DNA of 61,024 nt, counting the filler, from Dugesia japonica (taxonomy: Eukaryota): NCBI GenBank assembly GCA_001938525.1. It is 6 parts of 6 records of this genome, joined end to end, with 100 filler letters (N's around TTAATTAATTAA, not from the genome) between each part and the next. Parts side by side here need not be neighbours in the genome. Positions count along the whole stretch, not along the records: positions 29,124 to 40,728 come from MQRL01554023.1; 5 more parts are not named here. One strand, given 5' to 3'. The notes beneath the pieces were generated by a model. It ran no database searches. It was not told where the DNA came from and worked only from the letters and a program-made list of their open reading frames with translations. The position numbers and the translations under genes were made by a program. Every line of letters starts with the position of its first letter. Positions within the stretch are counted from its first letter, which is position 1. Below, piece by piece: positions 3,482 to 43,556 of the stretch.

Positions 3482-3565
3482 ATAATCAAATAAGAATAGA
3501 AATTTTTGAGGATTTTAATGTTTTAGTTTGAAGGTATTTTAACAGTCATAATATCTATATTCCAG

Positions 3566-14506: not shown

Positions 14507-14531
14507 AAGTAATTTCTTATTTTATTTAAAA

Positions 14532-14803: not shown

Positions 14804-14845
14804 ACAAATAACATGTGCATATATATATATATGAAAATAAAAATT

Positions 14846-15206: not shown

Positions 15207-15229
15207 TTTATATCAAAATTGTTGTAACG

Positions 15230-17585: not shown

Positions 17586-18762
17586 TTTGTGGAAAAACTG
17601 AATTGTGTATTTTTGATCGTCTCCTCAAGCTGTTATTGAATATGGGTAATTTAAAACGTGTTTCTAATGAATTCAATATCTGAATCAAGAAATGATGTAG
17701 AGTTTTTTATAAATGGATCGCAAACAGAATATTTGGATTTAAATGATACTTTATTGTATATCCAAGTAAAAGTAGTTGATAAAAATGGAAAGGATTTGGA
17801 CGAAAAATCAAACGTCATTCCTAGCAATTACATATTTCATACTATGTTCAGAGATACTTGGATTTAATAATATTAAAATTGAAGGTGGAAATGAAACTCA
17901 TATTCAAAAAGCATTGATTGAAAGAAATTTGAATGATAATGGAGATAGTAAGAATATTTGTCTTTCTACAATTGGATATGGAGATAAAGATTATAGAAAA
18001 TTTTCCATTAAATCATCAAAACCATTATCTCTCTGTAGTTCTTTGCAACTTGATTTCATGGATCAACCAAAATATCTAATTCCTACCATTAATGTTTAAA
18101 TTAGAATGAAAAGAGCACCTTCAAAAATGTGTTTAGAATCAATAAATGATGAACCCAAATATGTATTGTTGGTTGCAAAATTGATGGTTAAACGTGTTAG
18201 AGTTGAATCATTGGTATTCTCAGGTCACCAAATTGGATTACAAACTCAAAATGCAGTTTATCCAATAAAAACCAAGGAAATTGTAGCATATGCAATTAGT
18301 AAAGATAGCACATCATTTTATAAAGAACAAATCTTTGGCGATCGTCGATTACCAACTTTATTCTAGTTTCATTTTAAAGTGGAGAACAGTATAATGGTAG
18401 TTATAAAAGCTCTAGTTCCGGATTCAATCATTTCAATGTTAAATCAATAACTCTATCAAAAAGCAGTGATTATCGAAAAATATATTCCCAAGACTTTACA
18501 AATGATAGTTATAGAACAACATATATGCAATCGTTAGTTAGAAAAAAGGGATATCTAAACAAGAATATGAATTATGAAATAACACTTGATGAATTCAAAA
18601 CCAAGTATCCATTCTTTACATTTGTAGTTGCTCTAGATTTTGAAATTAATCAAAGTCAATTGAATCAACAAAGAAATTTAAGATTGGATATCAAGTTTAA
18701 AAGTGCATTGATTGCACCCTCATATGTAGTAATTTATGGGGTATTTGAAAATGAAACTAAAA
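17582..18762 (+). pseudogene. Polinton double-jelly-roll major capsid protein (PY)
   Basis: KTELCIFD, VEFFINGSQTEYLDLNDTLLYIQVKV, LQLDFMDQPKYLIP, AKLMVKRVRV, AVYPI, LRLDIKF...VVIYGVFEN. Confidence 0.88.
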
Positions 18763-19615
18763 TGGGACAACATTGATGAAGAAGAATATGATGAAGCAAA
18801 ACAAGTATGAACACAATATAGTTGCACTAATCTCTTACAGTATATGCTAATATACATAAAACTAGACATATACCTGCTTGCCAATGTTTTTGAAAAATCT
18901 AGAGCACAAGTCAAAGATCAGGGTAGGTTTGAAATAGCAAACCTTATATCAATACCAGCTTTAAGTTGGGCAACAGTGATAAAAACATGTCCTGTCAAGA
19001 TTGAATTGTTACAAGATCCGGAAATGTACTTCTTTTTCCAAGCTGGAATAAGAGGAGAAATGACCTTTGTGAATAAACATATGGTACGTGCAGATGAAAG
19101 CACAAGTCTGCTTTATATTGACATTAACAGTCTGTATGGTTGAGCTTTGAGTGAACCGTTACCATATTGTAATTTTGAATGGATAATTGATGAAGATCAG
19201 CCGAAGACTATGATAGAAATATTGTCATATTTGGATATGGAGAAAAACGAATGTGGATTTGTTTTTGAGGTAGACCTATCAATTTCACTTGAAAAACATA
19301 ACAAATTAGACTAACTGCCACTTGCTCCAATTAATCAATGCCCACCAGGAAGTAAAGTTAAGAAATAACTTTTGACACATGAAGCAAAACAGAATTATGC
19401 TATACATTATCGGCTGCTTTAATTGTTAATGAAACTGGGTGCAAAAGTACATAAAGTTCATCGGGCGGTAGTGTTTTTAAGCGGCTCTGTTTTTAAGTCA
19501 TATATCGACTTTAATTCAGAAAAACGAGCTCAATCTACTAACGTCTTTGAGAAAGACTTTTTTATATTAAAAATGAAAAAATTTGGAAAACCTGTTGAAA
19601 ACTTATTAAAACGTA
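18763..19615 (+). pseudogene. Protein-primed family B DNA polymerase fragment (N-terminus deleted)
   Basis: LDIYLLANVFE, AGIRGE, LLYIDINSLYG*A, GFVFEVDL, LPLAP, KSYIDFNSEKR...FEKDFF..FGK..EN. Confidence 0.9.
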
Positions 19616-20350
19616 NNNNNNNNNNNNNNNNNNNNNNNNNNNNNNNNNNNNNNNNNNNNTTAATTAATTAANNNNNNNNNNNNNNNNNNNNNNNNNNNNN
19701 NNNNNNNNNNNNNNNAATAATATAACAATAGCAATATTACACAATTTTTTAGAAGTAGAAGTAAATTATTTTTACAATTGCAATCATTGCGAGAATAATT
19801 GTTGAAATTAACCAGTGATCACATTGCCAAAGTTTCAATAAATTAAAAAGATTTGATTTAAATTTTGTTTTTTTTTTGTTAATAATCCTTTTTTTACAAT
19901 AGTCTTCAGCAGGGATTTAGTTTTTGATTTATTTTAAAATTTATTTTATTTTGTTGAATTTTTATTTATTGTGAATTACGTTGATTTTAAGTTCATCTTC
20001 TTTAATCAGTAATTCTTCGTGTTTTGTCCTGTGAAGTGTGGAAATATAACCTGTTCCTAGTGTTTCCCATGTTATCGGAAGACTTCACGTTCTTTCTGCT
20101 TGAGATATTCTTTATTTTCACTTATGAAAATTCTTTTTTTTCTTTGATTAATTTGATTAATACAATTTTGCTCTAAATATTTTTTTAATTAATCGATTCT
20201 GTTTCAATTTCACAACACTTTTTTTTATATCAATAAATTTAACTTCAAAACAATACAAATCAATTTAATTTCATTTATGCTGTTAATTAATGGCACTAAA
20301 ATTGCTTATTTATAAATATAATTCTTATATGCATTATATATGTTTAAATA

Positions 20351-20896
20351 CTGTGTTTTTCCATATATAAGGCCGCTCCAAAAATAAGGCCTAGTAGGAT
20401 TTTTTCGTTTATTTTAATATAAGACCTACTTCGAATATAAGGGAAATTTTTAAAAAGTAACAATACAATTAATTTGTCATGTTTTTATGTGATGATAATC
20501 TTTGTAAGAAATATTACCAAATTTTAACGTTGTTGACTTTATTTAAGTTAGAATAGTGAGTCCATTTATTATTATGTTGCANNNNNNNNNNNNNNNNNNN
20601 TGTAAACGAGGGTGCTTAAATATACTCGCATGTCACTTTCATTCGAAACAGCATATACTTTGATATGTATTTGTATGTAAAAATTGGAGAGACAGAATTA
20701 TAAGGTTTAAATTGTCAGAACTAAGTTGATTTATTAGAACGTGATGACATGGTCATATTTGAATAAATTTTTGGTTTTTGCTTATTTATATACTGTTATA
20801 TTTATCTTAAAAAATTTACTCCGATTATATAAGACCACTGGTATATTTTTCATATAACTTAATATAAGTCAGTGCCTTATATATGGACAAACATAG
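20351..20896. mobile_element. MITE with ~24-bp TIRs and TA target duplication
   Basis: TA|CTGTGTTTTTCCATATATAAGGC ... GCCTTATATATGGACAAACATAG|TA. Confidence 0.7.
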
Positions 20897-20964
20897 TAAT
20901 ATGAAACAACTGAATAAATAATTTTATTTAAAATAAAATGTGTTAAAAGCAAACGATCAAAATT

Positions 20965-21300
20965 GTTGTTCTTTTTTTAATATTTATGATATGCCTTCTT
21001 CAGGAACTACTGTTCAGTAAATTTTGATTATAAACTTTGAAATAACAACTGATTAAATTTAATTTTCATTGGTTATTATTTATAATTTTAATTTCACTGA
21101 AAATTTAAAAAAAAGATCTGATAATGTTTGCAAACAATAAACCACGAATATTTTCAATGAATTTAATGTTATAATTATCAACCAATGAAAATTAATTGTA
21201 ATCAGATTACTTTCATTTGGGTTTTTATTTTGAAATTTATAACCAGAATGAATTGAACAATAGTTCCTGAAGAAGGCATAGCCGAAATATTGAACAATCT
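20965..21300. mobile_element. Inverted pair of Penelope-like terminal repeats
   Basis: ATGCCTTCTTCAGGAACTACTGTTCA (20991) is the inverse of TGAACAATAGTTCCTGAAGAAGGCAT (21254). The right arm contains a hammerhead core. Confidence 0.55.
21260..21298 (+). ncRNA. Minimal type I hammerhead ribozyme (Penelope-type)
   Basis: Stem I ATAGTTC/GAACAAT, core CTGAAGA, stem II GGC-ATA-GCC, GAAA, palindromic stem III AATATT. Confidence 0.6.
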
Positions 21301-21571
21301 ATGAAAATAGAAGAACATCTTATTTGATATTTGATATTAAAGATATATTTTAAATTCAAAAAATATTATCTAAAATGTAGCGAATTAAAATAAATTNNNN
21401 NNNNNNNNNNNNNNNNNNNNNNNNNNNNNNNNNNNNNNNNNNNNNNNNNNNNNNNNNNNNNNNNNNNNNNNTTAAGCAAAACCTTTAGTTTACAGATATT
21501 TTTACATAACATGAAAATTGGAAAATGATCTGAGTTGGATAATATATTTTAATATAAAATTATTTATTTAC

Positions 21572-24500
21572 TTTCAACATTTTTGCCGCATCAGTCCATC
21601 GATTTTTCTCTCCTCCAAGTCCTCCGATTAATTGTTCGGCTCTGTCTAATTTCTTGCTACAAAGTTCAATGTTGTCTTCCAAATCTTTTTTACGTTGTTG
21701 AGTTTCATCGAGTTGATCAGTTAAGTCTTGAAGTTTGGCCTCAACTTCATCGAGTTGGGCTTTTTTCTCTGCTAATTGTTTCAACTAATTAATTTTAAAT
21801 AAAATAATTAAAAGAAAAAATTTTTACTGTTATTTCTAATTCTTTTTCTGCAGCTACTAATTTTATTTTTTTAGGAGCAACAATTTTCGAAGCAAAATCA
21901 TATTTATCCATTGCAAGAATCCATTTACAAAGACCTTCACACGCTGTGCTAGCGTTACGTACAATTTTCGGATCGAAATCTGGATCTGGAATGTATTTTT
22001 CTCTTAATTTTTTCATTGCTTGTGGATTCACCATATCAACATTGAAGGTCTTTAATTTTTCAAGGAATTTAAAATCACCAAGTAATTTAACAGAAGAAGT
22101 CCAATAATCTTCAATCATTTTCCCGGTTGCTGTATCTGGTTTTCTTTCTGGTTTTTCTCCGAGCATGATGCAAATAGCTTCCATTACTAATTTTATTAAA
22201 CCTGGTGGGTTTTTCATTGACCTTACTAGAGTGATATCCTGTAAAATAATTGAATAGAAATTTAATCAACAACATTTAATAATAATAATAAAAATAAACA
22301 ATCATTGAAAAGAAAAGTAATACAAAATATTACGAAGAAATTCTCAAATTTGTANGTATTAGAAATGTTTCAAGATGTAAAGGAGAAAGATGTATCATGG
22401 ACTAAAACACATATGGACGAGATCAGCACAATTTAAATAATAAATTTATTAACTAATTCAATAAAGTTTTATAAATAAAATTATTTTTAGAATAATATTT
22501 GGCCTAAACAATTGATAAAATTTCTTTTAAAATTTTTAATAAAAATAATTAGCGAGGTCATGATTTTGTTTGTAAAGTTCATAACTGATAAAGATTTTAT
22601 CTGGGAATAAATTTATTAATAATATATTTTAATTAATTTTGGTGATTTCGCGAATCTTTATATATTCTTAGTATCTTTCAAAAAATCCAATTATAATATC
22701 ATTAGTATTTTAAATTGATCAGTGTGGATTAATCCGTCAAAATATTTTGCATTCAATGAATTAAATTTATCATCATTTTTCCAGTTATAATTTCTAATGT
22801 GTTTTACAAATTTGTGACTTCATTAGATGCGTAGGAAAGAAATATTTATTTCAGTTACTGAAAGTCAGTATGACTATTACAGGCTTGCATAATGTAGTTA
22901 AATGGTTGTGAGAAGCACTGATAAGAGTTTAAATAATATATTTTCATAGAAAAGCATAAATTTAAATTCCATAAATATTTACATTGCAGTCGACTTTTAT
23001 TTCATGGATTCTAAACCACACGAACTTAACAAGCACAATACTACTTTGATCAAAATATACCCGGTCAACCCAATTTAAAATTCACGCAAATGCTATAGAT
23101 GTAATTCTTATTTTTAATAGTCGCTACATATTTGTTTTACTACATCACCAAATTTCAGCTGAACAGATCACGTCAAAACGAAATTAAACGTCCCGATACC
23201 TTGAAAATGCTACAAAAGTGCTATGGCAACAATGCTTTATCAAAATCAACAACTAATGAATGTCTAATAAAATATTTTAGTTGTTTAAGTATAAATAGAA
23301 AATAAAAAAAGTTAAAATTAAAAGAAATCTACTAACGTTTTGTTTTAAAGTATCCAGAGACGCTATTGCTTCTCTTAATATTGGCATAGCTTCTGCTAAA
23401 TCTGCTTCACAATCATCTTTTATTTCTTGACTAGCTGCAGCTTTAACATTAGCTTCTTCTTGTTCCGCTGCCATTATTTCACGCTTTGCCTCTACTTCAA
23501 CCGTATCTTGTTCTACTTTTATCAATAGTTTATCAGTTTGAGCCGATGTGACAATCAGTTCCGGTTGAAGAGCTTTTAGCTCAATTTGCATTTTTCCTAC
23601 TTCTTTAGCAGCAAATTCCAATTTATCTAAACCAGTTAAATATCGATTTCTTAGAGTAATCAATTCGTTTCTTTTGAAATTCAATAACTTTTTAAATGTT
23701 TTAATCAATTCCAAATACGAGGTAGGAGTTACGTAATTATATCGGCGAAGTGTATTTAAAAATCTAAAGAATATTTAAAATACAAGCACTATTTAATAAA
23801 AGAAAATTCTACTTACTCTTCAGATAATTTTATTACGCTTTCATGATAGAATTTACACATTATTACAATAGATTCTCTTGTACTTTCATCCATTTCAATG
23901 TCTTCCAAGAATTTGTTAGCAACCATTTCCAAAGCATCTTCCGGCCACGCCTGTGATTTAAAATAACAATTGGAAATTTAAAAATACTAATTACTTGAAA
24001 CCAATCAATCGTACAACAGTTAATAAGAGATGGAAACATTCTTAACCTATTTCTGAATGCATCTCCAATTGGACTCATCGCTAGAACAATATGGAGATTT
24101 TGTTTTACTCTTTCAATGAAGTAGTTATACATGGCCATTGGTGTTGAATCGATTTTTCTTCCCTGTAATTAAAATTCAAATAATCTAACGAATCAGGGCA
24201 CAAATTAGAAGAGAAGCATATATGATTATAACTGTCCATATAAAGAAGTTAACTTTATTATTGGCATTGGCTTTATTATTTTTATGTTGAATGTATTTTT
24301 ATTAACGTTAATAATAAAAAATTTATTTTACTATTTAATATTGTGTTATTTTATGAAAGAAATTGGTGGCTTTTGAAATCTTTGTATTTTTCATAATGTC
24401 ATATTTACCTTTATTTATTAACTTTATACATTAAAAATTGATTGCTAAAAATAAAATATTCATTAAACATAAAGCACGTATACCAAAAAAATTTTCAATA

Positions 24501-27431
24501 ATTTCATTTCAAATACACAATTTAATCAGAAAATTCTGTGAAACTGTTTGTGTTTATTAATTCAAGAAATCATTGAAAACATTTTCAAAATAAAATATAA
24601 AAGTTGCATAGATGTGAAGCAAATAAACATATTAAGACAAAATATTACAATTATACCATTTATAATAGCAAACTGGAATTATTTTAGTGTTTTATTAATT
24701 GGATTTTTATTCACTTACTAGTTAATATAATAAATCGTTTGAGGCACGGTGGTATTAAAAATGTCCCACCTTTTTGATTCGTAAAAATGCAATAAACTTA
24801 ATTGAATTATTATTATTTCTTTTATATTATGATACTCCTTTATTAATAATAATTTATTAAAATTTATTAATTATTATTTTTTTAAAATTCTGTGCATCAA
24901 CGGGTTAACACGAATACTTTTTAATTGTACGATTACTTAACTATTTAATCTAGATTTTTAACAGTTGTGTAAAACTACATTTCAATACTTATGCATAACA
25001 TGTTATAACATATCACCAACAATCTCAGTCTCTCAACTAAATTTTGTCGATCTAGCATCGTCTCGATTATTATCAACATTTACACAACCAGAATTCAAAA
25101 AGTTTTCCAATCATTAGTTTATGCTTATCATTAGAATAAGTTAATTTAAACGTTAATTTGATTTATGAAATATTATNNNNNNNNNNNNNNNNNNNNNNNN
25201 NNNNNNNNNNNNNNNNNNNNNNNNNNNNNNNNNNNNNNNNNNNNNNNNNNNNNNNNNNNNNNNNNNNNNNNNNNNNNNNNNNNNNNNNNNNNNNNNNNNN
25301 NNNNNNNNNNNNNNNNNNNNNNNATAATAATAATAATGATAATAATAATAATCAAAATAAATAAAGCGACACACATGCAAAAGATATAAAATTATAAATC
25401 AAATGCCGTGTTAGTGATAAAATAATATTGCAAGAATAGCGATATATAGAATAAACTCACAGTTTGTTTTTCCTGGAAAAATAAATAATTAAGTACAATA
25501 ATAACAATAGTATATTACTAAAATGTAATAAAATATTTACTTGGCTTGATTAGCTATATAATAATAATATTTGTAAACCTACGGAAAAATTAATTAATTA
25601 ATGTATAATTAATTAATGTATACTTCAATTAATTTATAATTTGTTATACATTAATCTTTATATTATTATTTGTCATAAATAAAAACAAAGGTGATAAAAA
25701 TCAAAGATTATTCATTTACTCCAATACTTCTATAAAATGACAGCATTTCTCACAGAGAACGCGCTTGTGTCTATCCAAAAATTGGCATTAAATGAAAATA
25801 TTAATAGTGTATGAAAACATTTATTTATTATATAAGAAGTGCAAGATCTAAACATTTTCATATAAAACATTAGATCAGAGATATAAACAAAGTGCTCGTT
25901 ATCGTTGGAAAATACAGTACTATATTATCTATAAAGTGATAACTAATTTTGTTAAAAAACTAATGTTAATAATTTTATAGTAATTCTAGGAGTGAGAAAA
26001 GATATTTTAATGCTAATTTGAATAAATATACCTCGATTCTAGCCGCGTTTTGCATTTTTTCTAAAATTTCAGCTTTTTCGTCTGATGGATATAAATTTGG
26101 AACATCACCTGTATTAAGAAGCATGGAAACATCTTCCATAAATGACTCTTGTTTTATTTGATTGTCAGAGAAAAGAAAAACTAATGGTTTAGCATCACAA
26201 CCTGCTTTAATTAATAATTTCTTTAAGTCATCTCTCCATTCATTTTGTCCATAGTTTCTAGTTATTTCTATAATAAATAATTCATAGTCAGCCATAAAAG
26301 CTGCCATTTTAGTTGCACTTTGTCTGCCACTTCCTCCAATACCTATAAAAATAAATAATTATATTATATTAATTATATATAACTGTTAATATATAAATAT
26401 ATTTGTTTTCCATCAATCAGTCATTTCTCGGTGAACGCAATAGAAAATACTATTCATATTTATTTGTAGATAATATTATTAATTATATACAGGGTGTTTA
26501 TTATGTATGTTAACATATTTCAATTTTAAATATTCTAATAAATAAGAAAGATAAAGTCAGTAATAGTTTATTTTTGAAGAAAATTTATTTTAAAGAAATA
26601 CCATATTTGATTGCATTACACCCGTCTACTGGGGGAGAGGAATTAGGACCATCAAAGAATTAAGGCCGACCACGTATTAATTCTTAATTTTTGGTTGGTC
26701 TTAATTCCTTATCCCTATTATATAAACAATTATCAAAGTCATCTTTGCCGAGTTAAATTATTGTGATCGGTTTAAATGAGTAAAAGTCTGCCTTTTTAAC
26801 GACATTAGAGTAACTGCTAAAATTTTTGTCCGGTTCGAAAGCGCACCCCGAAGGGATAAATTGTCCAATCATTTCTCAAACCTTTTGGATAACTTCCTTT
26901 GTTGCAATCTTAAAAGTTCGGTGTGATTTCATTTCTTCTTCCAAAATGCTGGTTTCCTTGAACTTATCAACGATTTTTTATCGTTTGTCTAATTGGTAGT
27001 GTAGTAATAAAATTATGTTTCCACTTCCTGATCAACTCTGAGAATCCTAAAATTTGGTATTTCAGAAAATAATTTGAATTCTTTCTTCAATAGAAAGTTG
27101 GATANTCATTGTTTTTAAAAAATAACAAAATTTATAATTAATCCATATAAGTAAATTATTAATATCTGATTCTAATTCCTTGCAATTTGAAATGAAAGTA
27201 CGTAAACATATAGTATTATAGTAAACACCATATTACACTAGGATTTATTTTACTCGTGTCCTTTATGACATGTTACGGGATAGTAGTAAATAAAGAAATT
27301 AACTCAATCAAACTATTTAATTGTTAACAAATATATTAATTATAATTTTTAATATTTAATAGATCATTTATGAAATTTTGTTATGTACTTAATTGAGCCT
27401 ATTTTTATGATAGATATATTTAGTGGTTAGC

Positions 27432-27903: not shown

Positions 27904-30559
27904 CTTAATTTAAAGAAAATCAATAATTGTTTTTGAAATAAAAAAAAATTTCCATTAAGATTTGTTGTAAATAAATTTTTATTCATTAATTCAATACTTG
28001 CATATACAACCTTTTATAGTTTAATTAAACATTAATTAAGTGCAGGTGTGTTGTTACAATCCGAGAATTACAGAAAATTTTCTAAAACATAGAATTTCTA
28101 AAAGTTCCGAAAATTAGAAAAAATCTCAAACAACAAAGGATATGATATAGCAATTATGAGTAAGCATCATCTTATTCAATATTTTATTAAAAGAATACAA
28201 ATTAGTAGTGACGATGAAAAATTATTATTTAATAATAATGTGCAATATTTCTTATCAATAATTGTTTAAAATAATTATTTTCTGTAAATTTTCATATTAA
28301 TTTAAATCAAGTTTTAAATCTTAATTTTCAATTTGTGAAAAATAATTTCCAATTAGAGCATGAAGTTTTAATTTGTTTAAATAAACAAATAATGATGGTT
28401 ATAGTTTTTCTTTGAATAAAGATTGTAATGAATTCGAGTTCTGATGTTGATAATCCGACGAGTTTTCCAAACTCATCTAACAGTGTTTAAATAGTTTATT
28501 TTTATGTAAATAATTTATATTGTGTACTTTTTTACAAAAAAAAATTAATGTATTCAGTAGCATAATCAGAACCTTCAGTACCAGGAAAAGTTTATTAATT
28601 TTGATTTTCATGTTTTGGCCAAAATATGTGACTGGACTGATTATTCAATGGTCCAACTTAGCGGCTTTCACTTCAATTTATTATAAACCAGAACCGTTGC
28701 CAAAATGCTTTATAATCTNTTTTTATATTTAAAACTAATAATTCATATTTTCCATTGTTAAGACTTTATCATATTTATTAACTTTTCGGTTTTTGCCGTA
28801 ATCGGCATAATTTTAAATTTCCTACACGTCAGTATTTTGCTTCACAATATGAATTTTCAAAAATTGGATTCCAAAAATTCCGACTCAATTGTAACAAATG
28901 CCTTAAATTTTTCTTACATTCAAGGGGCCACAAAATATTTATATAAAGAAAATTTCATGGATTCATCAATTTTTTACCATTCTCAATTCTATTTTTTTCT
29001 TTTCTTACAAATTATTTGAAGCANNNNNNNNNNNNNNNNNNNNNNNNNNNNNNNNNNNNNNNNNNNNTTAATTAATTAANNNNNNNNNNNNNNNNNNNNN
29101 NNNNNNNNNNNNNNNNNNNNNNNAAAAATCACCAATCTTTATCCTTGATTAAATAAATTGAAAAAGCTATTACTTTAAATTAGTTGGTCCCTGAGAAAAT
29201 TTGTAAGTATGAAATGGATAACATTAAATTTGAAATAAATTAATTGTATGTATGAAACTAATCATGAAAAATTTAATTCATCATTAATTAATAGTCATCA
29301 AGTTAATCGTAAAGGAAACAATAAAATTATAATTAAATTCNNNNNNNNNNNNNNNNNNNNNNNNNNNNNNNNNNNNNNNNNNNNNNNNNNNNNNNNNNNN
29401 NNNNNNNNNNNNNNNNNNNNNNNNNNNNNNNNNNNNNNNNNNNNNNNNNNNNNNNNNNNNNNNNNNNNNNNNNNNNNNNNNNNNNNNNNNNNNNNNNNNN
29501 NNNNNNNNNNNNNNNNNNNNNNNNNNNNNNNNNNTAACTCCTTTATGTGATAATTTATTCACAAATATTGGTTTTCTCACTGTTCACAGGTCTTCAATGA
29601 TCAGTGCTCTGATCACTAGTCCTCAGACATCAAAACTCTGCAAGCTGTGCACTGGTCATAAGAGATCTGACCACTGTACACTAGTTTTCAGTAATCAATA
29701 CTCTGCTCAATGGGCACTGATCTTGAGTTGTCGGTGGTTTTCTCGTTCTTCACAGGTCTTTACTCTTTACTAATTTTCTCACTCTTTGCTAGTCTCGNTT
29801 TTTATTGATCTTAAATGTACTGTTTGGTTAATTTTAAAACTTCATAAATGTTAGATTAATTATTTTACTTTGATTGAATAAAATTTCTATTTCAGGATTT
29901 AATTAATTAATTTGAAATGTTAATAATAGGTTTGTGAATAATTGGTTAGAATTTTAATGATTGAATAAATTTAAATGTTACAAGCAGATATTCAATTGGT
30001 AAGTTAATTAATAAGAAGAAGTTATATATATTAAGTTGAAAATATGTGAACAATTAACCAGTTATTGGTTGTAAGGTGTATATTCAGTGTGAATTATAGG
30101 CATAACTATAAGAATAAGCGATGAATAGATTAAGCCATTAACTGAATAATCAATAGTTTAATGATTACAACGAGTATTGTGTATGGTAACATTTAATTAT
30201 AGCGAGTTTTATGTATTAAGACTTGATAAAAGCGAATATTGTGTATGTTAATACTTACTGATAGTGAGTATTGCGTATGTTAATAAAATATAAAATAGAA
30301 TATCCTCACCAAAAGGATATCAGAAACCCAAAATGAAAATGGAACGGAAACGACCACCAAAGTGGAATCAGCCACCCACCAACCAACAGACTCAACTACC
30401 GTCGCACAGAGGTAAGCAATATAACTCAAACCAAGGTCGTCGAAAAACCACCAGTACACCCATCATGGTAAGAGCCTATTGAATAAGGTTTTAGGAGAGG
30501 GAATCAAGATGGAAGAAGAAAAAAACAACATAATACAAGTCAAATCCCTTCAGATGTAG

Positions 30560-33500
30560 TATGCGCAAGTCTTGGTGGCGGACCATTATTAACGATTATG
30601 GTTAAAATCAACGGTAGACCTACAACGGCCTTGTTAAATACAGGAGCAAGAATTTCGTTATTATCAATAGAGAAAATCGCTATAACGGAATATAAAAACA
30701 TACTGCCCACCAACACTACGGCAGATGTGGCGAACTGTAGTAGTCTTAAAATTTCTGGGGAGCTACCTTGCAAAGTAGAATATTTGGACAATAAAATTAA
30801 ACAAAATATGATAGTAGTCGAGATAGCAGGACAGTGTATTTTGGGCACAGACATTCTTCCAACTCTGATGAAAAATACAAAATATATTGTTGAAAAAATA
30901 AAATATTAAACTTCTCAAAATTATGGTTGCAATCACTGGAGGGATATACTCATGTTAAAGATCACGAGGTATTCACAACAGAAGAAATATTGGTGCCAAG
31001 CCGATGCCACGTATATTGTGTAGTAAGCACCAAAAGTGCATACGAAGGAGATGGCTATTTTGAACCTTATGATGGATTGGCACAACAATATGAGTTGCTC
31101 ACAGCAGGGGGAATAACCACGGTCAACAAAAGTGGAGAGGTACCTGTTAGTTTAATCAACTTCACCGAAAAGAATATCATAATCAAACCGAATTCCAAAA
31201 TGGGTACGCTAACCCTCATCAAACAAGAAACCGACGAGATAGAAGAAATAATCGTCGAACTAGTAATAGATAGGACATTTTAAGTGGAAACCGAAACACT
31301 ATCGGATGACCAAAACCAAGCAATTCTACAGTTGTTAGAAGAATTTCGGGATATTTTCCATGGACTGATGAGGAACTAGGTATGTTTACTGCTACAATGC
31401 ACACAACTCCGTTAACAGACGAAAACCAAAGTAAACAGAAACCATATGCAATGACTGTGAAAAAAAAGGAATTTGCAAACAAGAAAAAAGCTAAGCTGGT
31501 GAAAATTGGGTTGATAGAAGCTAGCTGCTCACCATGGCAGTCACCAGTAGTATTAGTTGATAAGAAAGACGGGACACAACGATTTTGCATTTATTATAGA
31601 AGGCTGAAGGCACAAACTAAACAGGACACGTATCCGTTGCCAGACATCAATGAACTACTACAATTATTGTGTGATACCAAAATATTCACTACACTGGACA
31701 TACGAAGCGGTTATTGGCAAATCCAGATTAAACCAGCAGATAAAGAGAAAACAGCTTTTTCCACAGGCAAGGATTTATACCAATTCATACGCATACCGTT
31801 CAGACTCACTGATGCACCTGCCTCATAACAACGAATGATGAATTATGTAACCTATGGCATATCTCAATGTATGACATATATTGAAGATTTACTGATATAC
31901 TCGCCAACGTTTGAAGGACATCTCAATGATTTGCATAGTGTGTTTATTCGATTACGTAAATGGAATTTGAAAGTGAAACCCACTAAATGTGAATGAGCCA
32001 AGAATAAAGTAAAGTATTTTTGTCACTTAATCTCCGACAAAGGGAAGGAACCGGATCCAAGAAATACCGAGAAAATCAGGAATCTCGCACCTCCAAACTG
32101 TGTGCTCAAAATACAAGAGTTTTTAGGCCTCGCAAATTATTATCGGAAATTTATCAAAGATTTCGCTAAAATTGCTAAACCAATTCAGGAACTGGTCAAA
32201 CAGGATACCGCATTCATATAGGGGCCGGAGCAGCAACAATCATTTGAGACAGTGAGGAACAAATTATTAACTCCACCAATTCTGGTGCATTCGGATATAA
32301 AAAAACCATTAGCCACTGACACTAGTGGTTACGCGATGGGTGCTGTGTTAAACCAATTGGATCAACAAGGTAGAGAAAGAGTGATAGCATATTTTAGTCA
32401 GAAATTTCAAGGGTCAGAGTTAAATTACAGCACTACAGAACGAGAAATAATGGCTATTGTTAAGGTCACTAAGCATTTCCGATCACTCATACATGATCAC
32501 GAGGTGTTAATCTATACGGATCATCTGCCAATCACATTTATGGATCAAAAACCGTTACGATGGAATAGAATGGCGAAATGGCAACTGGCAATGCAAGATT
32601 ATTGCCCATTGTTAAAATTTAAAACCGGTAAAGCAAACGCGAATGCAGATTGCATTTCAAGAATAGGCGGACCGGAAAATGCGGAAACTACATCGGACGA
32701 CACGGAAACTTTCACATTACGCGATTTACTAGAGAAAAAAGTGGGAATGGTATATTTTATATTAGCCGAAGATCAAAATTTCAAGGGATTGAAACAAGCA
32801 CAGTCAGAGGAGGAGGAAATACAGATCATTGCGAAATATATGGAAAATTACAACCTAAAGAAACAGGAATGCGAACCTAAAATGAAGGAGCATTTACAGA
32901 AGAATGGTGGGCGTTATGCTTTCACTAAAGGCTGGTTAACAGCTCAGAATTGGGAAAATACCGTGTTAGTTATTCCAAAATCCAGGCGACATAAATTGCT
33001 GGAACAATATCATAATGGAGTATTGGAGAGACACATGTTACATAAAAAGACTGAGTCAAAATTACTGCAGAAATACTACTGGCCACACATGACAGAATCA
33101 GTAAAAAAATGGATCACCAAATGTCAAATATGTGCTGCCAGGAGAGGAACGGGCAAGCGAGTAAAGGCATTACTAAAACCCATTGCAGTACCAGCAACAC
33201 CTATGTAAATAATAGCCATGGATGTAGTTGGACCATTGCCACCGACACTATGCAGAAATATTTACATACTTACTATCATCCATAAACATACGGACGATTT
33301 AATGAAACATTGATCAATATGCTGTCTAGTTATGCACAAAAGGAACAGAATAATTGTGATAAACATATTCAACTATGTCTTTTTGCATATCGAATGAGTG
33401 GGCATCCAGCTACTAAATACACCCTATTTGAACTTATGTATGGCAGAGAATGCAACATGTCAATCGATTTGGAATTCAAACTTCTTATAACTCAATACAA

Positions 33501-34017
33501 AGATGAAACGGATTTCGCAGCAAATTTCAAAGAAACTATGCAGAAAATCTTGAAACAAGCCAAAGAAAATGTAGGCTTCTACCAAGAAAGTTGCAAAGAT
33601 TTGCATGATAAAACCGCAGTTCAACATGCATATAAGAAGGGCGACATGGTATTAATCAATTTACGGTATATTTACGTCAGTACTACGTCAAAATTAAAGA
33701 AGCCTTGGCAAGGGTCATATGAAGTAATCGAGGTAACTAAAATTAACCTCAAAGTTCGGAAAAAAGGAAATCTCTTAGAGAAACCTAAAATCTACAACGT
33801 CAACTTATGTAAAAAGGTCGCAACAACGGATGAAATTACTCCAGCCACAACTGCTGCACCAACTACGTCAGAACATAGAAGACCAGATAGACCACGTAAG
33901 TCAAAAGATAAGGAAGTAAACACCTCGCACAGTTACCCATTACGATCACAACAAGCTATGATGATACTCGGAAAATTATCAACACCAGTATTCGTACTAG
34001 GTCAGTTAAGTCAGTGA
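30560..34017 (+). pseudogene. Gypsy pol: protease, RT, RNase H, integrase (core largely deleted near 33275)
   Basis: ALLNTGA (PR); SPWQSPVVLVDKKDGTQRFCIYYRRL, LDIRSGYWQI, YIED (RT); TDTSGYAMGAVL, YSTTERE, YTDHLP (RH); H..H..YYWPHM..CQIC (IN zinc finger); KPWQGSY. Confidence 0.92.
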
Positions 34018-37000
34018 GTTAAAGAATTGGACACTACAACGCTGTATCCTATAATTCCAAGAGAAACACAGACAACAGTAGCAGAAAATAATTGTGCCAA
34101 CTTTTCTTGGGTGACATGCCTAATCTCACTAACATTAATCGAAGCGAGTTGTCTTACCTGTATAAGGAAGATGCAAACAGTTCTGAAATCGACATTATGC
34201 AGCGTCTCCGCATGAAGACTGTGGTTGTTACACCAAGATGAATTTAGTAGAAAACGATGTAAGAAAATACATGATGAACTGTCAATTCAAGCACTATTAG
34301 AGCAAGACGTAATTAACTCCTTATGTGAACCCTGCGTTGGAATTTATTGGAAATTAAAAGTGGTTATACAACTAGAAGATGAGGAAATGACAGAAACAGA
34401 ATTGCAGAAGAAAACTAGATTGCTGAAAAATGGTGTTTTAAAATATGCGGATAAACGAAGAAAGCCTAGGAAAGTGAAAGATAGTCCGATTTTATATCAG
34501 GATTTTCATGCCAAAACCGGCAAGGAAAACGCCGAAACCCTAAATACTGCACTATCCACCAAGGAACTAAAACCTTCGAATATTATAGGTATACCTAAAA
34601 TAGCAGAGACACCAAATACTAATCATCTGTCTCAAGCTCAAATGACATTATCTATGATTAATAATAGATCAATCATTGCATTAAAAATAAAACATTAAAA
34701 CTGTATCTTTTGGTTCAGATAATCAAATGCGGCGACCACTTGTAATCAAGGCTATGAACGCCACTATGATCTTTACCATCACATGCCATGGAAGCCGGAA
34801 AACAAGATCCAAAAATGGTTGTATTCATATTACACGCATAACATGTCCCTTCTCAGCATTACAACTGAAGGAGAATTGTCTGCAATGTATTAAGCGAACA
34901 CAAATTATATTTAAAAAAATGCACTAAAGGCCATTTACGAACAACGAGCATGGCTAGTTAGACCAGAAAATTGGTTTAGGAAAGACTGTGAGGGATCACG
35001 AATTAAAATACCAATTCAAGCACCCATTCGTCAATCTGTCATAAAAAATTATGTATGCCATGCACGGATATTTACAGCGATAAATTATTAGCATCCATTC
35101 ATGTATTTCACCGTGCACTGGTGCAATTGAACTGGATAAGAGTTTATGAACCTTTGAAGATTCAATTACCATGGGAAATGGTAGGATCACCCAGTCAAAG
35201 AAAATACAAGCTAAAAAATATGGCGAAATTGGACGTAAAATCAGATAAACTAACTCCCAGAGAACCGTAATTGAACAATATCGAGAACACCCAGGAAGGA
35301 ATACAAAAGCGAGTGAAAATAATAGAAAAGTCATTCAATGAACAATGAAATAAAATGGATGGAAAAGAGAAACAACTAGCCAACATAGCCTTAGGAGAAA
35401 TGGAAAGAATGAATATGACGGTAGTATATAATGAGACAGAACAAGCGGAGGAAGAAACACAAGAAAACAAGAGTATAATTACAATGGAAGTAATAATCAA
35501 AGTGGCTTTGTTGTTATGGGCAGTAATCAACACAAGTTGCGATTTTGGCATATTAATTTGGTTGACCCTGAAACTCATCAAAAATATGGGGAAAGGCTAC
35601 CAAACATCAATTATAATTTATGAAGTAGTGGGAATAATCTTACTATGATTAGCATTACCAGCATTGGCAACTCATCAAATACAGAATTTCAACCAGAATA
35701 AAATCCCTAACGGACAAATTATACTTATAATTTTAATTATGATAACGAAAGGAGGTAAAAGTCAAGACTGTTGGACCAACTTGGCAATATGAACAGAACA
35801 TAGGATATTTGTCGAGGATAGCAAAACAAGAATTAGGACAATGAGTACAGATGGACGAAACCGTAAGGTAAAAGTTCACGAGGGATACGGTCATGAATCA
35901 ATACTCCTAAAGCCCACAATCATGGGAACAAAAGAAATCAGGATATTATTAACCTGGCATAAGTAGACGGCAAGGTTATGGTTCAGAGTAGATATACCAG
36001 TAGAGGGTCAGGAAATGCACAAAACATTGGTGGATGCATTCAGCATAATAATTTCAAGAGAAGTGCCGCAAAGGCTACAGCGAATACGAACAAGAAATAC
36101 AATTCGACATACAAATTGCGCGCAACTTCTTAATCTACTATATAGTGGATAAACAACAACAAAGAGGATGGACTTGGAAAAGGAAAGGGAGATGAGAGCT
36201 TGAAAATTTATCAAAAGAATGAATACATATTTCATATACAATTTTGGAAAAATGTATTTAAGGAAACAACGGGAGAAGATAGAAAACAGAGATTTATGGA
36301 ACAAAAAAGTATAGCTATTAACCGAGAAAAGGATTCAACACAATAACTGAATATTCTTTTGACAAATGGGGATCCCATTGGCAGGAAGAACCAGGACCAG
36401 TACAGATCAGAAAAATGAATAACACTTATCACTTGAGAATTAACGAGAAAATGGAACAATTGACAGCACAGAAATATTACTCGCTCATTCAATGGGCATG
36501 GTGTTACAACGAGGAGGTAGCGAGATTTAAAGAAAATGCGTTGCAAGAGCAAGGAGTAAATATGGGTAGTTTCGGCCCAGAAATGTAGGAATGAAATTCA
36601 CTACAGCCATAAATCGTGATATAATAATAAAATCAAACACCACCAGACCAAAGGTTAAAGAGGTTACGATTACAGAAAAAACCACCACAACAACAGCGGA
36701 AACTCAAAAACCAACTACGTTAGTCAACGAGGAAAGAGAAACAAAAAGAGCAAACTTCTTAAACAATTTAATGATAAACTTGCGGAATTACAAGCCAAAG
36801 GAGGACCATGTGATGGGATGAATGGGCCTACCACAGTAAAGGAATCAATTACTACACTCTAACCGACAAAAAATGGGATAGATTATATAGTAACAATAGG
36901 GAGTGTGTCAATAGTGGTATTTGTATTAATAACGATATATTTGCAATTCTGTAAACGAGCGAAACCCAAACGAAAGAAACATATCCGAAGTAGAAGAAAA

Positions 37001-37117
37001 CGACATCTACCGATAGCCCCACCAATCTACGAAGGATTACCACTTCGGGTGATATCGAACAAATTATCCACATATGTGCCTAGACCCTATCAGGCACCGG
37101 GGGTAATGACTTGCTGA
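33958..37117 (+). pseudogene. Post-integrase env-like membrane/glycoprotein region, decayed
   Basis: Cys-rich segments (34100-35060), hydrophobic helices near 35490-35750, Thr-rich stalk at 36591, and TM VSIVVFVLITIYLQFC followed by a basic tail with PPIY. Confidence 0.5.
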
Positions 37118-37230: not shown

Positions 37231-37800
37231 ATGAGTGTTATCGAAAATGAAAATGAATATTCAAATATGAGTACAAATGAAGTGATGGATTCGCAAAGTG
37301 ACACAGAAAGCTCAAGTACAACAAGCCATATATGTAGTAGTCATGCAAGAAGCCTTACCCGAATAAGCAATAATTATAATACCCTTTCACAAGTGACGAT
37401 AAATGAAATATGGAAAAATCATAATGAAGAAATGAAAGAACTATGGGATAGGGCTCAAATCCAAACTCATTAGACACAACAACGATTGGAAGTGTTGGAG
37501 CATAGCCAAAATCAATTACTCAAAACTATAATACACACGAAACCTCAAGATTTGAATGAGCTGGAGTTTAAAAACAAAGTCCTACAGTTGCAAAACGAGA
37601 ATCTATATGCAGAAACCCTTATGTGTCGGCAACAAATAGTAGAAAATCGACGAATGTTGGAAACCACTACAGAAAAACAGAATTATGCAATGGAATTATT
37701 AGCCAGACAACATGACCTAATTTCTAATAAGACAAGAGAACTAAAGGAGTAGTAGCCTCACAAAAATGGAAAATCGAGACACTCAACATGGAGTGCTCGC
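37231..37800 (+). pseudogene. Accessory coiled-coil ORF of the Gypsy element
   Basis: Ser-rich N-terminus, then heptad-rich LEFKNKVLQLQNENLYAE.... One in-frame stop. TTCAG acceptor just upstream. Confidence 0.55.
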
Positions 37801-38217
37801 ACTCAAGTCAGCTTTGTCTAAAAATTTAAGAGAGAGTGGAAGTTAAAAAAAATATATATAATAATATATAAAATATATACATAAAATAATAGATACCTAG
37901 TAACTATATACGTATTCGAGTAAATATAGAAACTCACGAAAAATAGTAAATAAACTGAAAATTAAAATAATTGTAAATAAATAGTATTGTATAACCAGAA
38001 ACAATCATGCATATAATTTTAGATAATAGAATTCGATCTGGAACTATCAATAAATGAGGCCAGACTAATAATGAATGATCTGGATATTGAATTATATTGT
38101 ATGAGCCAAGGTCGAGAATAAGTCAAGCAAAGTCCAATAGTGCAAAACGTAATGCACTACTGAAATAGTTTTTGGTCACCAGAAAATTTTATACGACGGA
38201 AAGTGTAGTACAGTGTA

Positions 38218-38703
38218 ATGAAAGTTTTCGACTATAAATATCGAGATGAAGGTATACAAACAAAATCCTTATTCGAGTTACCCAAGTACCTGCATGGACT
38301 CATTGAGGATATAGCCAGATCTGGATTTTATTTCGCCGGTACCTCAGAACGGCCGGATAAAGTAAAATGTATATATTGCCAAGGAAACCTGTACAAATGG
38401 AGCATAAACGATAAACCTAACAGAGATCACAAGAAATGGTTTCCTACATGTCCTTTTCTGTTAAATTTAGATGTAAATAATAAAACAAAACCAAGCAAAG
38501 GCAGAAAATCAGAAATTGAAAAATTAACTTCAGAACCGAAAAAAATATATTTCAAAATCATAAAAAATCGAGCAGAAGTACCATTACCCGATGATATAGA
38601 ATGGAATATCGAAGCTAGAGAAGAAACCTTTCATAAGGCACTGGACTTAATAGAAAAGGCAATGGAAGGATTAAATAAAACGGGGAGTGATTTGTTGGGG
38701 TGA
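38218..38703 (+). CDS. BIR-domain (inhibitor-of-apoptosis-like) protein carried by the retrotransposon
   Basis: IARSGFYFAG...DKVKCIYCQGNLYKWSINDKPNRDHKKWFPTCPFL, the canonical BIR CX2C-X16-H-X6-C pattern. Confidence 0.9.
   Translation: MKVFDYKYRDEGIQTKSLFELPKYLHGLIEDIARSGFYFAGTSERPDKVKCIYCQGNLYKWSINDKPNRDHKKWFPTCPFLLNLDVNNKTKPSKGRKSEIEKLTSEPKKIYFKIIKNRAEVPLPDDIEWNIEAREETFHKALDLIEKAMEGLNKTGSDLLG
38673..38692 (+). promoter_or_regulatory. Polypurine tract
   Basis: AAATAAAACGGGGAGTGATT immediately before the LTR start TGTTGGGG. Confidence 0.65.
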
Positions 38704-39892
38704 AACACGCAGTCTGAAAAGAAAACCAAACGAAGGGCCAGAGAGGAAGAATTAATAAAGAAAAAGGATTAAAAGGAAATTCAATCAGGAACAAAGCACT
38801 TACGATGAAAAAGATAGAATACATACATCAATAAAAGAAATCACAACGAATTAATTATGAATAACTAGTATGGCTAAATTAGAATAAAATTAATTAATAA
38901 ATAAAAGATTAAAATACCGAGAAGAGGGATAAAAAGATCTTGGATGAATAAATCTGGACCACATCGACTATGGTAATCAAAAGAAATTATGAAAATAATA
39001 ATTAAAATCAAGAAAAGCTACGAGTGAAAAATCATTAATTACCAGAAAAAATTAATTAATTTTGAAATAAAATAAAGCAAAATTAGTTAAAAATTCGTTT
39101 TTTACGAATAGCTTTGCTCAGAAGAATCGCAGCAACGCGTGAAAAAAAAATCTGAGAAGATCTCTAAATGAAGTATTAGGAGTTGAATATGAGAAAATCT
39201 TACCACCATCGAGAAGGTTGCCACAGAAATCTGAAAATAAAAATAAAACAAAGAAATGACAATCACATGTCACTCCAAAAATAGACACCAATAGAATGTC
39301 AAAAGACTCTACAAAAATTCTAAAATTTGGCATCAATACTAATAAGAATCAAGAATCCGAGAATAAAAATAACTGGCCAATACAGAACGAGTCGGGGTGT
39401 AACCAAAACGGGTTTATAAACCCCCCAAACTTTAGAAGAAAAACAACTTAAAAAACGAAATTTTCTAACTTTACTTAAGTTATTTGAATTGCTAAAGTTT
39501 TACGGAGGAACACTTACTGCTATTTGTATAATAAATCAAAGTAACACAAATTGCAAACTTACTTGTTAATTATCTTTGAAATTTAAAGGAACAAAGGTTT
39601 ATCGGTAAAATTCAGGACACGGCGAGAAATAATCAAAACTTAAATAGACAAAAATCCGTCGCAGATATTCTAAATAATAAGTAGTTAGTAATTTTGTCTG
39701 GATGAATATTCTGTTTTAAAATGAATTTAATAATAAATATTAAGTGTAACAGAAAATTTGTTTTGATTTTTGTAACTAATTTGAATAGTGCTTTAACCGA
39801 ATAGACAAAAGCAACATGCTCAAGAACTATCACTGATTCCTGCCGTTCAAACAATCGGCATACGAAGTTACAGTCGACCAAGAGATGCCGTG
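38693..39892 (+). repeat. 3' LTR (partial) of the giant Gypsy element
   Basis: Starts TGTTGGGGTGAAACAC, as at 41086. 39040-39295 matches 780-1035 and 41390-41653. Confidence 0.8.
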
Positions 39893-40728
39893 AGTAGATA
39901 GATAGTGGCAGTCCGCACCACGCACACATTCAGTAGTCCCCCCCGCCATGACGTAATGTAATGAAATTTAATCCTAATGTATTTAGTTGGGAATTTAAAA
40001 ACTACATCATTAGGTAATAGTACTTAATTTGGTGTTAAATGCCAGAAAATAATCAACTTACTTTTTATTGTTTATAGACTGTAACATTATTTGGATTGAA
40101 AATATCAGTTCGAACTCTAATATCATCAGGACATTGCTGTGTAAAATCAAGGAAAATATATCCATGAGGCATTACTGTTGCATCCTTAAATGAATCCAAT
40201 AGAAATTGCCGATTATTTGGATAAGCTTGTCTTGCTAGAAAATCAACAATAGTTTGGTCTCTTGGGTTTTTAAATATAACCAAATATTGAACATTTAAAT
40301 TACGTGTTCTATGATAACCACCTTGATGGAATAGATTCTGTGTAATGAATATTACAGTAACACCACAATGTCTTGATATTTTTATGAATAAATTATTAAA
40401 GTCTTTTTCTTTATTGGCTTCTTGATACAGATCATCAACAACAATAATATCACCTGTTTTCAATCTCTTGCTCAAGTTGTCATCAAATCCAATAATTATG
40501 GTNNNNNNNNNNNNNNNNNNNNNNNNNNNAGTCATTCCATGCTCCTCATCTGCACCTTTATGCCAATATATTGTATTGAATTTCGATTTGAATAAGTTTG
40601 ATTTGAATAATTTACACACAAACAAGATTTTTCCACTACCACTTTGTCCAACAGTTTGATATACAGCATCATTTCTTAGTTCCATAATAATTTATACTTG
40701 TTTAAACGTATCAATTGAATTAATATTG
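39893..40728 (-). mobile_element. Second Polinton fragment: AGTAGATAGATAG terminus plus packaging ATPase (40065-40685)
   Basis: ATPase GQSGSGKI/IVVDDL/FITQNLF/FKNPRD is clearly homologous to the 13906 copy. The terminus is shared with 1-49 and 40902. Confidence 0.88.
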
Positions 40729-40828: not shown

Positions 40829-40902
40829 TATGTAATAATCCGATTACGAGGGGGGGTTCTACTGAATGTGTGCGTGGTGCCATCCGCTACTATCTATCTA
40901 CT
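40829..40902 (-). mobile_element. Polinton TIR end at contig start
   Basis: ...CTACTGAATGTGTGCGTGGTGCCATCCGCTACTATCTATCTACT. Confidence 0.7.
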
Positions 40903-41085
40903 CACAAAGACTCCCCTCTTTGATTAAATTCTATAATAAAACAAATATCTATGGACTTCACTCTTTGGTTATTTTATAACAAAATAAACAAGGACTTCCT
41001 TATTTGAAACAATATACTGTAACTATGTAAATAATACATAATTTCTTTAAAGTTTATATTATATTCTATTATATTCTTTTATTAT

Positions 41086-43556
41086 TGTTGGGGTGAAACA
41101 CCCGATTAAGAAGAAAGCAAGGCCAAAGGCCCAAATCATAAGCGGAAGGCTACTAGCAAAGAAAACTAATGAAGAACAGTATTCATATTATAATAATAAA
41201 CTACGAATAATCAATCATGGACAGAATATGTTAAAATATCTGATAAAAGGCCAAAAGAAAAAGAAAGTGAGTATGAAGACCTTGGTGAAATAAGTTAGCT
41301 CACACCAAGGCCAATAATTAAAGGGAATTATCAAAATAATAATAAACGGCAGAAGAAATTAATGTCAGTAAATAATTATTTATTGCAGAAAAATTAATTA
41401 ATTTAAAAGAAAAATAAATTGAAATTGATCGAAAACTGGATTTTGGTGATTACCTCTACTCTGCCAAATCACAGCGACCTCTGGTAAACAAATCTGAGAA
41501 GAATTGGTGACAAAACATTAAGAATTGGGTAATAGAAAATCTTATCACAATCCAGAAGGTTTCCACAGGGATTTGAAGATTGGGCCAATAAGAGATCCGA
41601 AAAAAAAATCAAAGGAATGACAATCACATATCATTTCAAAAATAGACGCCAATGGTGTAAACCGAGCACGAGACCAAAGTAAACTTGAAAAGAAAATTAT
41701 TTGTAATTAATTACTATATTTAAAAGGGAGAACCAAATCAAAATCAATTCATTGTTCTCAATTCGGAATTGCCAATTTGTCAGTGTTCAACCCGTTGACA
41801 GAATCATAGCCAATCTATTAAATGGAATATCTTTGGGAAACGCTATTCGATCGTCTTACCAATAGGGTAATTTTTAAACGGTATTGGAATCCTCATGATC
41901 GTAATGCATGGTTCCTTACCGATTAATCCAATATGCCTTCCGTCGACGCAGAAAATGAAATAGAATGGGCTGCATCCAAACGCTAGGCCTTTTACGAATG
42001 GAGAGGTCCCGACCAAACCCACGAGGTTTTACATCGCGTCACCGTCACTGATCCGAAAACCAGGCATATTACAAGCGTGTGGCGTGACGGGCCTGTATTT
42101 ATCTCTATATTGGCCACATACGTGCCACCCCACACGATATTGAGTGGAGAGATAAGCAATACTTTTTGGGACTTGCGGAATAGTGCAAGTAATGGGTTGG
42201 CGGAAAATAATGCTCCTTATCTACTCGAAGAAAATCCATTGTTTCAAATATACTCTTGTTTTATTAATGATAATATATTCTGTGTAAAAAATTAACTTAG
42301 TTACGTTCTTTTTAAATCTGTTGTTGACGGGTATTATTAAAAATAATCAAATAAAAGTTGAAATTTTTGAGGATTTTAATGTTTTAGTTTGAAGGTATTT
42401 TAATAGTCATAATATATTTATTCCAGTGCACTCATCGTTAAATAGACCACCAGCCCCTACCAAGAAAGTAAGGGAATCCAGTGAAGACATTGAGATGTCT
42501 TGGGAGCTGCACCGATTAACCAAACGGCGATTTGAGGCAGAGATGACCACTGCTAATGCCAAAGTGAAGCGGTACCAGGCCAAATGTGTCCACATTCGCA
42601 AGGAAATTGAGGCTTCGCACGCTCAAGAGAGAGTTTGGAAGTTAGAGGTAGAATCCTTCAAAGAAATGATCCGGTCCAACCATGACTGAGAAAATAAACT
42701 GGTCAATGACATCTTACTCCTCAAAGAAAAAATGCCTTTGCAGCCTCTCATGATTGATAAAGGTACCCAAAAGACTTGTACTTAATTATGGTTGTAATAT
42801 TCCATCTTCATAAATAAATATCGTTTATGTATCAAGAGTTGTCTCTGTTTACTAATCTTTTTTTATTTTTGTTATAATGATAAATATTGGATATTAATCC
42901 TTAGGCCTAATAAAATGATGATAATTTCTCCATAATATTCCCATTGTTTCAGTGTCCCGCATCAGGCTTCCAAGTAGGTTAAGTCGTTGCCATCGAATCA
43001 TCCAAAGATTACTTGTGGAAAGAAATCTCAAAAGTCAAACCGAGAGGGCTCTTTTAAAACTTTTGGCTCAAAGGAATAAGCTGATTAAGAAATTAGACAT
43101 AATAGTCAAAATGCAGAACGACATAGCCGAGCAGGCAAAACAACTCCTGCAACACAAGGTCGAATTTTTGAAACGGTATATTGCCAATCTGTCCCGCTAA
43201 TAAGGCCATGAATCGTGTCTCAACTGGGACGATCCAGATGACTTCGATTTCATACCCGAAAAGCTTACCCAGTGGTTAGACCCGGGAGCTCTAGATGAAA
43301 TGTAGTATAGAAACAATTCAATTTATTAGCAATCTGTGTTTATTTTTTGATACTTTAAAATAATAGGGAAATAACTACGGACCCGAACCACAGGTGTACG
43401 AGTGTGAACCTCGCATGAAGTTGAATGGTCAACCGTTCTTCACTGAATATCTAATTTGCGGACATTATATCTAAATTCTTGACGGGGTACACCTGAGGGT
43501 CGTTTTTTTCCCGGCCAGTTTTTCTCTCCATCATCAGCTCAGATGGAACCCCAACA
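41086..43556 (+). mobile_element. Complete solo LTR (2471 bp, spliced form) with 4-bp TSD TTAT
   Basis: TTAT|TGTTGGGG...CCCCAACA|TTAT, with perfect 8-bp terminal inverted repeats. Contains ORFs A, B and C. Confidence 0.88.

Follow-up and report, generated by a model that had tools for sequence, protein, structure and literature searches.

The closest described systems are the Burro elements of planarians. In the accessible portion of PMC6431247, a BIR is recorded in Burro1/GYPSM1 since 2007, and also in Burro-2, -3, and -4. The dUTPase of Burro is located between the protease (PR) and the reverse transcriptase (RT), env is located between gag and pol, the internal regions extend up to 25 kb, and the totals exceed 30 kb; these stated sizes imply LTRs of ~2.5 kb or more. 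The same text has the modules alternating between polyprotein subdomains and accessory ORFs, its wording puts the Burro motifs inside a 4,873-aa ORF1, and in Burro-like elements a giant ORF1 encodes gag, MATH, BCL2, and env ahead of PR. According to Lee et al. (2026, Dev Cell), as cited in the available part of PMC13465017, stem cells are shielded from caspase-mediated apoptosis by a region of Burro1 with RING and BIR. To the extent of these two texts, BIR-bearing giant Gypsy elements and an anti-apoptotic role for them are already in print, and the planarian precedent suspected in a first-pass annotation of the locus described here is found in the BIR-bearing Burro elements. The accessible portions of PMC8532177, PMC11410931, and PMC13238120 contain no domain map of Burro.

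Two further groups are similar in part. The Platyhelminthes env elements in the available part of PMC13524379 are all gB-type errantiviruses of the order GAG-ENV-POL; they have a Ty3/Gypsy pol in common with the present element, and the term BIR occurs 0 times in the main text as available. The bdelloid rotifer LTR elements in the accessible text of PMC5408684 likewise bear a dUTPase and acquired 3' ORFs, but their ORF3 cargo is env-like, a GDSL esterase, or a DEDDy nuclease, and not a BIR. A 3'-terminal RING-less BIR ORF was not found described in the literature consulted, and the primary Burro papers and their supplements may cover it. Few retrotransposons carry anti-apoptotic genes, and a benefit of Burro1 to planarian stem cells is reported. 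Whether the strategy recurs, and whether it depends on the RING, could be examined in a related or parallel lineage whose BIR lacks one.

The window (the whole stretch of DNA that was analysed) comprises 61,024 nucleotides from Dugesia japonica and is AT-rich with runs of N. The BIR-bearing element is on the + strand from ~30300 to beyond 39290 and is incomplete at both ends. Its parts are, in order, protease, dUTPase, RT, RNase H, integrase, a post-integrase region, a 173-codon ORF, the BIR gene, a polypurine tract (PPT), and an LTR; the coordinates are collected in Table 1. We think it probable that this locus is a decayed, 5'-incomplete Ty3/Gypsy copy, likely Burro-like, whose last gene is a RING-less single-BIR IAP homologue that is multicopy in the family and broken here. 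Since the concept is in print and the copy is dead, the locus is of use chiefly for directing attention to a family that deserves to be mapped.

Table 1. Coordinates of the BIR-bearing element and of the solo LTR in the window
Feature	Position	Strand	Basis
Aspartic protease region of pol	30487..30906	+	Pfam RVP 7.6e-6
dUTPase, between protease and RT	30894..31280	+	Pfam PF00692 7.4e-5, 23 bits vs cut-off 22
RT, RNase H, and integrase zinc finger (649-codon frame, 4 stops)	31310..33256	+	RVT_1 6.5e-21, RT_RNaseH 1.4e-29, Integrase_H2C2 1.3e-14
Remainder of integrase core and C-terminal part, different frame	33229..33957	+	Atlas features, frames
Coding sequence past the integrase, interrupted by stops and changes of frame	33958..37117	+	Hydropathy, frames
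Accessory ORF, 173 codons, one stop	37231..37752	+	Frame reading
Possible 3' acceptor, closing a 273-nt spacer (25% GC)	38020..38022	+	Sequence
Single-BIR IAP-like gene, ~225 codons, RING-less	38026..38703	+	Frame reading; family differences at broken sites
BIR domain, intact zinc ligands	38236..38460	+	Profile of 445 BIR cores, E 9.8e-19; Pfam; PDB
PPT region, common to lineages differing upstream	38671..38692	+	Loose ends, depth jump, purine count
3' LTR start	38693..39292	+	68-73% identity over 38974-39292 to 41315-41653 and 703-1036
Solo LTR, sister lineage, 2471 bp, defines LTR type	41086..43556	+	8-bp inverted termini, 4-bp matching flanks

The PR-RT-RH-IN order of a Ty3/Gypsy LTR retrotransposon is present by Pfam, and the 3' end has a PPT followed by an LTR that starts with TG. 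The Atlas features of 33286-34014 score 0.94 to clusters bearing Integrase_p58_C. No gag, PBS, or matching 5' LTR was recognized in the window, and runs of N are located upstream of the element. The nearest near-full-length pol sequences are 33-37% identical (best 292 of 5686 pol matches), and none of 2089 longer candidates in the protein search was a close relative of RH-IN at 1e-30. A metagenome scan returned 7 distant loci, 0 of them with a BIR, and a scan of viral contigs returned no locus related to the element.

The post-integrase region comprises ~1,050 codons with Cys-rich patches, three hydrophobic segments, and a Thr-rich stretch, and it ends in a membrane helix at 36887-36943 followed by a basic tail. 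A PPxY motif was noticed by eye in this tail. Pfam (searched to E 0.1 with whole frames and to E 5 with segments), PHROGs, and the PDB gave no family match for the region, and nothing env-related, including F- or gB-type fusion glycoproteins, was found in the sequence as split into frames by stops. The lack of an env match after the integrase fits the flatworm GAG-ENV-POL order (PMC13524379, accessible part), in which env would lie upstream of pol. Pol and an "env-like" region had been described as full of stops; pol retains an open run of 328 codons, and no database match supports the env identity. The accessory ORF is preceded by a 113-nt spacer of 20% GC and has its own ATG a few bases past an AG, a Ser/Thr-rich start, and, by eye, a coiled-coil-like end; Pfam gives nothing for it below E 0.09.

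By description, and within the accessible text on Burro/GYPSM1, the element resembles Burro in its PR-dUTPase-RT-RH-IN order, BIR cargo, accessory ORFs, coiled coil (Smc-like, by eye), and, as judged from the sister lineage, putative LTRs of ~2.5 kb. Its dUTPase was found between PR and RT, and the solo LTR of the sister lineage is 2471 bp long. The element is probably Burro-like, an assignment made from features and not from a Burro sequence alignment or a tree. It differs from Burro in that the BIR has an ORF of its own at the 3' end, in contact with the LTR, and no ankyrin was matched by Pfam in the scanned frames of the part present. The 5' half, where gag, MATH, BCL2, and env would be expected, is absent from the window, which weakens the assignment. 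An alternative is that a different giant Gypsy lineage, unlike Burro1, captured an IAP a second time and independently, with a stand-alone RING-less 3' BIR gene. Such a capture is favored by the location of the BIR in its own ORF past the integrase, whereas PMC6431247, in the accessible portion, words the Burro motifs as lying within ORF1; by the missing RING and ankyrin; and by a long post-integrase membrane-protein region that is absent from the Burro description in that portion. However, the dUTPase position and the LTR size agree with Burro, and the same text reports BIRs in Burro-2, -3, and -4 and modules that may be either accessory ORFs or subdomains. We consider a second capture unlikely, although it is the alternative that survives best. 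Slightly less likely again is its extended form, in which a second planarian giant-Gypsy lineage would have captured its IAP independently, the RING-less BIR would be one of several consecutive 3' accessory genes, each with its own start and served by alternative acceptors as in complex retroviruses, a diverged relative would still transcribe it, and death would be blocked by soaking up IAP antagonists or caspases and not by ubiquitination.

The canonical BIR that the first-pass annotation had recognized was confirmed by PF00653 in the 38209-38703 frame (E 9.4e-17, 61.7 bits vs a cut-off of 22.9). The Cx2Cx16Hx6C zinc ligands of this single BIR are intact, and the core residues W, D, P, H, W, F, and P agree with those most often present among 445 BIR cores; the Arg that BIRs typically have in their first helix is substituted in this copy. 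The peptide groove of type II BIRs is defined by an acidic residue and a Trp (E314 and W323 in XIAP BIR3). The D and W of the present core are at matching positions, which we take to be a putative groove for IAP-binding motifs. The Atlas features of the frame return "BIR" alone. The best single-domain PDB matches are ML-IAP and cIAP/XIAP domains, and the best named single-domain matches in the protein search are gastropod IAPs with a common 3-residue insertion. This insertion, a similarity and not a phylogeny, is compatible with a lophotrochozoan host as the source of the captured gene. The zinc ligands and the residues of the core are the same as in the BIRs of cellular IAPs (molluscan and nemertean BIRC2/3/7-like proteins; human cIAP, ML-IAP, and XIAP BIR3). 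The present gene differs from them in having one BIR and no UBA or RING, and it is at most about 50% identical to them over the domain. Representative matches of the frame are generic IAPs at ≤49% identity (best 150 of 4194), and none of 29 candidates in the protein search was a close relative. A profile built from 109 IAP RINGs found no RING at the BIR gene, the best i-E in the whole window being 0.54. A single-sequence AlphaFold model of the protein had a pLDDT of 32.7 and was left out of the reading.

Copies elsewhere in the family were examined by aligning 4 of 24 runs, two as DNA contig sets and two of RNA, to 37900-38870; depth is given as summed depth, which is distinct from copy number. 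The two sets gave 544 and 594 matching contigs, of which 477 and 513 were below 95% identity, mostly at 80-95%. The proposal that the BIR gene is inside a Gypsy LTR element and is common to the family is upheld by these contigs. The frame extends upstream from the BIR to about 38026 and is crossed by three stops, at 38119, 38161, and 38206. A non-reference letter that removes the stop accounts for 87-88%, 93-100%, and 100% of depth at the three sites (17-25 contigs each), and 98-99% of depth differs at the likely start codon (38026-38028). There is no majority indel within the frame across the contigs. Because the stops and the start differ elsewhere and the frame is uninterrupted by such indels, we infer that the family has a colinear gene of ~225 codons that was lost in this copy, and that the BIR gene is multicopy cargo with copy-private stops.

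Depth along the gene is uneven. It reaches 6,239 and 21,846 in the two sets on the zinc-binding core (bin 38362-38394; 9-25 contigs at the listed places), compared with 263-567 and 704-1,763 over bins 37999-38295, which is a rise of about 10-20 fold. At the PPT and LTR start it is far above the BIR core, at 16,000-26,000. This pattern fits abundant diverged lineages in which 80% similarity is retained nowhere but in the BIR core and the PPT, and the peak on the core suggests past selection across lineages.

The copy itself shows no trace of that selection. A frame of 161 aa that ends inside the LTR had been described, and it is present: the open frame is 164 codons from stop to stop at 38209-38703, or 161 aa from the ATG at 38218, with the whole BIR inside. 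It had also been proposed that the BIR stayed intact while pol decayed. The rate of stops per 100 codons was determined to be 1.33 for the BIR gene (3/225), 0.62 for the RT-RH-IN frame (4/649), 1.29 for the integrase C-part and post-integrase frame (8/622), and 0.58 for the accessory ORF (1/173). Sparing of the 161-aa BIR relative to pol is rejected because the stop rate of the gene equals or exceeds those of the pol frames, and the slower decay that had been expected of the BIR is contradicted by the same counts. The codons that are still open, with the whole BIR among them, speak against decay, although a stop-free run of 164 codons has P ~0.36 at the stop rate of pol. The 24 majority differences in the gene are distributed 7/9/8 over the codon positions (chi-square p 0.88). 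They come from the 40 listed of 231 difference rows, 32 of the 40 being inside the gene; 6 mainly RNA-supported and 2 mixed-share rows were dropped, and restoring the latter 2 gives 7/9/10. With no stop deficit versus pol, no third-position excess, and no transcripts of its own in the two RNA runs, the BIR gene is decaying without selection in this copy. The copy is dead, and its BIR gene is as decayed as the rest of the element.

The expected sign of expression was not obtained. RNA reads at least 95% identical to this copy numbered 0 over 37900-38870 in the two runs (X13 and X16), and this copy may be absent from the sampled animals because some of its private letters are missing in both DNA runs. 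Run X16 had 0 reads on the region and hence is no test of expression. Run X13 had 22 partial reads, all below 95% and from diverged relatives, which have 5 starts and a depth of 16 at 38185-38230, and a depth of 1-2 over the C-terminal parts. From these partial reads, the BIR gene region of a relative appears to be weakly transcribed; the first mates are on the minus strand, which would be the sense orientation for a library made by the usual stranded protocol. No X13 read was found on the BIR core and no splice joint was seen in that run. Both 3' ORFs follow AT-rich spacers that end in AG near the start, an arrangement of the sequence that suggests alternative acceptors or trans-splicing. The TTTTAG acceptor that had been placed at ~38022 is there as an AG at 38021-38022, but it is weak evidence for an acceptor: the window has 0.84 TTTYAG motifs per kb, the RNA reads show no joint, and base 38019, just before it, differs in 90-96% of depth. 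The acceptor at 38022 is unproven because the motif is common and the preceding base is mostly different in the family.

If the preferred reading is correct, an ancestor of the element would have captured a fragment of a host IAP, and active copies would express the BIR gene from its own start, probably as a spliced sub-genomic or trans-spliced message formed via the acceptor-like site with which the AT-rich spacer ends. The frame would run across the PPT to the first stop, which is given by the terminal motif of the LTR. The BIR may then bind IAP-binding-motif peptides of caspases or IAP antagonists, and the death threshold would be raised in the cell where the element is active. The gene is not the B-IAP of Burro1, since the RING is absent. 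As far as the available text on Burro1 goes, both are retrotransposon-borne BIRs in a planarian host, but B-IAP has a RING plus a BIR and a tested function, whereas this gene is RING-less and broken here. By analogy, a putative function like that of the captured IAP of Burro1 may be assigned to it. The protection from cell death that the first-pass annotation had inferred is plausible for active relatives and hypothetical for this copy.

The BIR gene could also be a passenger that brought no benefit while it was copied after a single capture, or it could act only as a binding module that has nothing to do with cell death. The absence of a RING, the lack of transcripts on the BIR core, and the unenriched third positions among the listed differences all agree with this. 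Those differences, however, are mostly private to this dead copy, and the depth peak on the BIR core over lineages, the colinear frame in the family, and the reads of a diverged relative on the N- and C-terminal parts of the gene argue against a passenger, which we regard as improbable.

Far less credible is a domesticated, still functional 161-codon gene, which the first-pass annotation implied. That the frame is open from ATG 38218 with the whole BIR and its zinc ligands speaks for it, but three upstream stops, a likely lost start, evenly distributed codon-position differences, and the P of ~0.36 for such an open run by chance make it very unlikely; the null RNA result points the same way, though the copy may be absent from those animals.

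At the 3' end, 18 of the 25 nt before 38693 are purines, compared with 7 of 25 before the solo LTR, and the first 16 nt of the LTR at 38693 are identical to the start of the solo LTR. Loose contig ends before 38671 (17 and 28 contigs) coincide with a jump in depth, so many elements with a common PPT differ upstream; contigs unlike this copy before 38693 number 13 and 19, with an agreement of 0.54 and 0.53. The common LTR start ties long, micro-gene-bearing LTRs to a pol- and BIR-bearing internal region. Similarity to the sister LTRs stops at ~39292, and the 3' LTR is therefore truncated or diverged past this point. Since the LTR starts at 38693, the BIR stop at 38701-38703 is inside it by 11 nt and is part of the terminal motif of the LTR. 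In HIV, nef is the last ORF, crosses the PPT, and reaches far into U3. The present frame also crosses the PPT into the LTR, but an overlap of 11 nt with a stop supplied by the LTR motif makes "nef-like" an overstatement, and the overlap is likely incidental.

Hundreds of contigs cover the BIR gene without a break into the PPT side, and deletion joints connect the gene body to 38647-38651; among the pieces listed, none reaches from the BIR core to the LTR. An origin of the BIR segment in another insertion outside the LTR element, either a host retrocopy (intronless IAP retrocopies are common in bivalves) or the neighboring Polinton-like element with its A32 ATPase at 40046-40727, is the least credible alternative given these contigs and joints and a gene that has the same strand as pol and immediately adjoins the PPT.

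A second purine run near 39391-39398, followed by a TG start near 39398, is possibly the end of another element. It is a candidate for the true PPT and 3' LTR, against which the start at 38693 is backed by the solo LTR and the loose contig ends. A copy 87% like the solo LTR, with inserts, is located at about 660-4596, and coiled-coil-like frames of ~98 codons are present in the solo LTR (42393-42689) and in its copy (3585-3881). A ~50-bp motif at 39890-39944 is repeated inverted at 40851-40905 and 1-49. Elsewhere in the window, the Polinton-like A32 ATPase is present in two copies that are 75% alike, together with an rve integrase, at 13816-15811 (+) and 40046-40727 (-); DNAH3-like exons, of an axonemal dynein heavy chain, are found at 21795-24168 (-), and tandem-like repeats of ~60-120 bp at 58257-58639.
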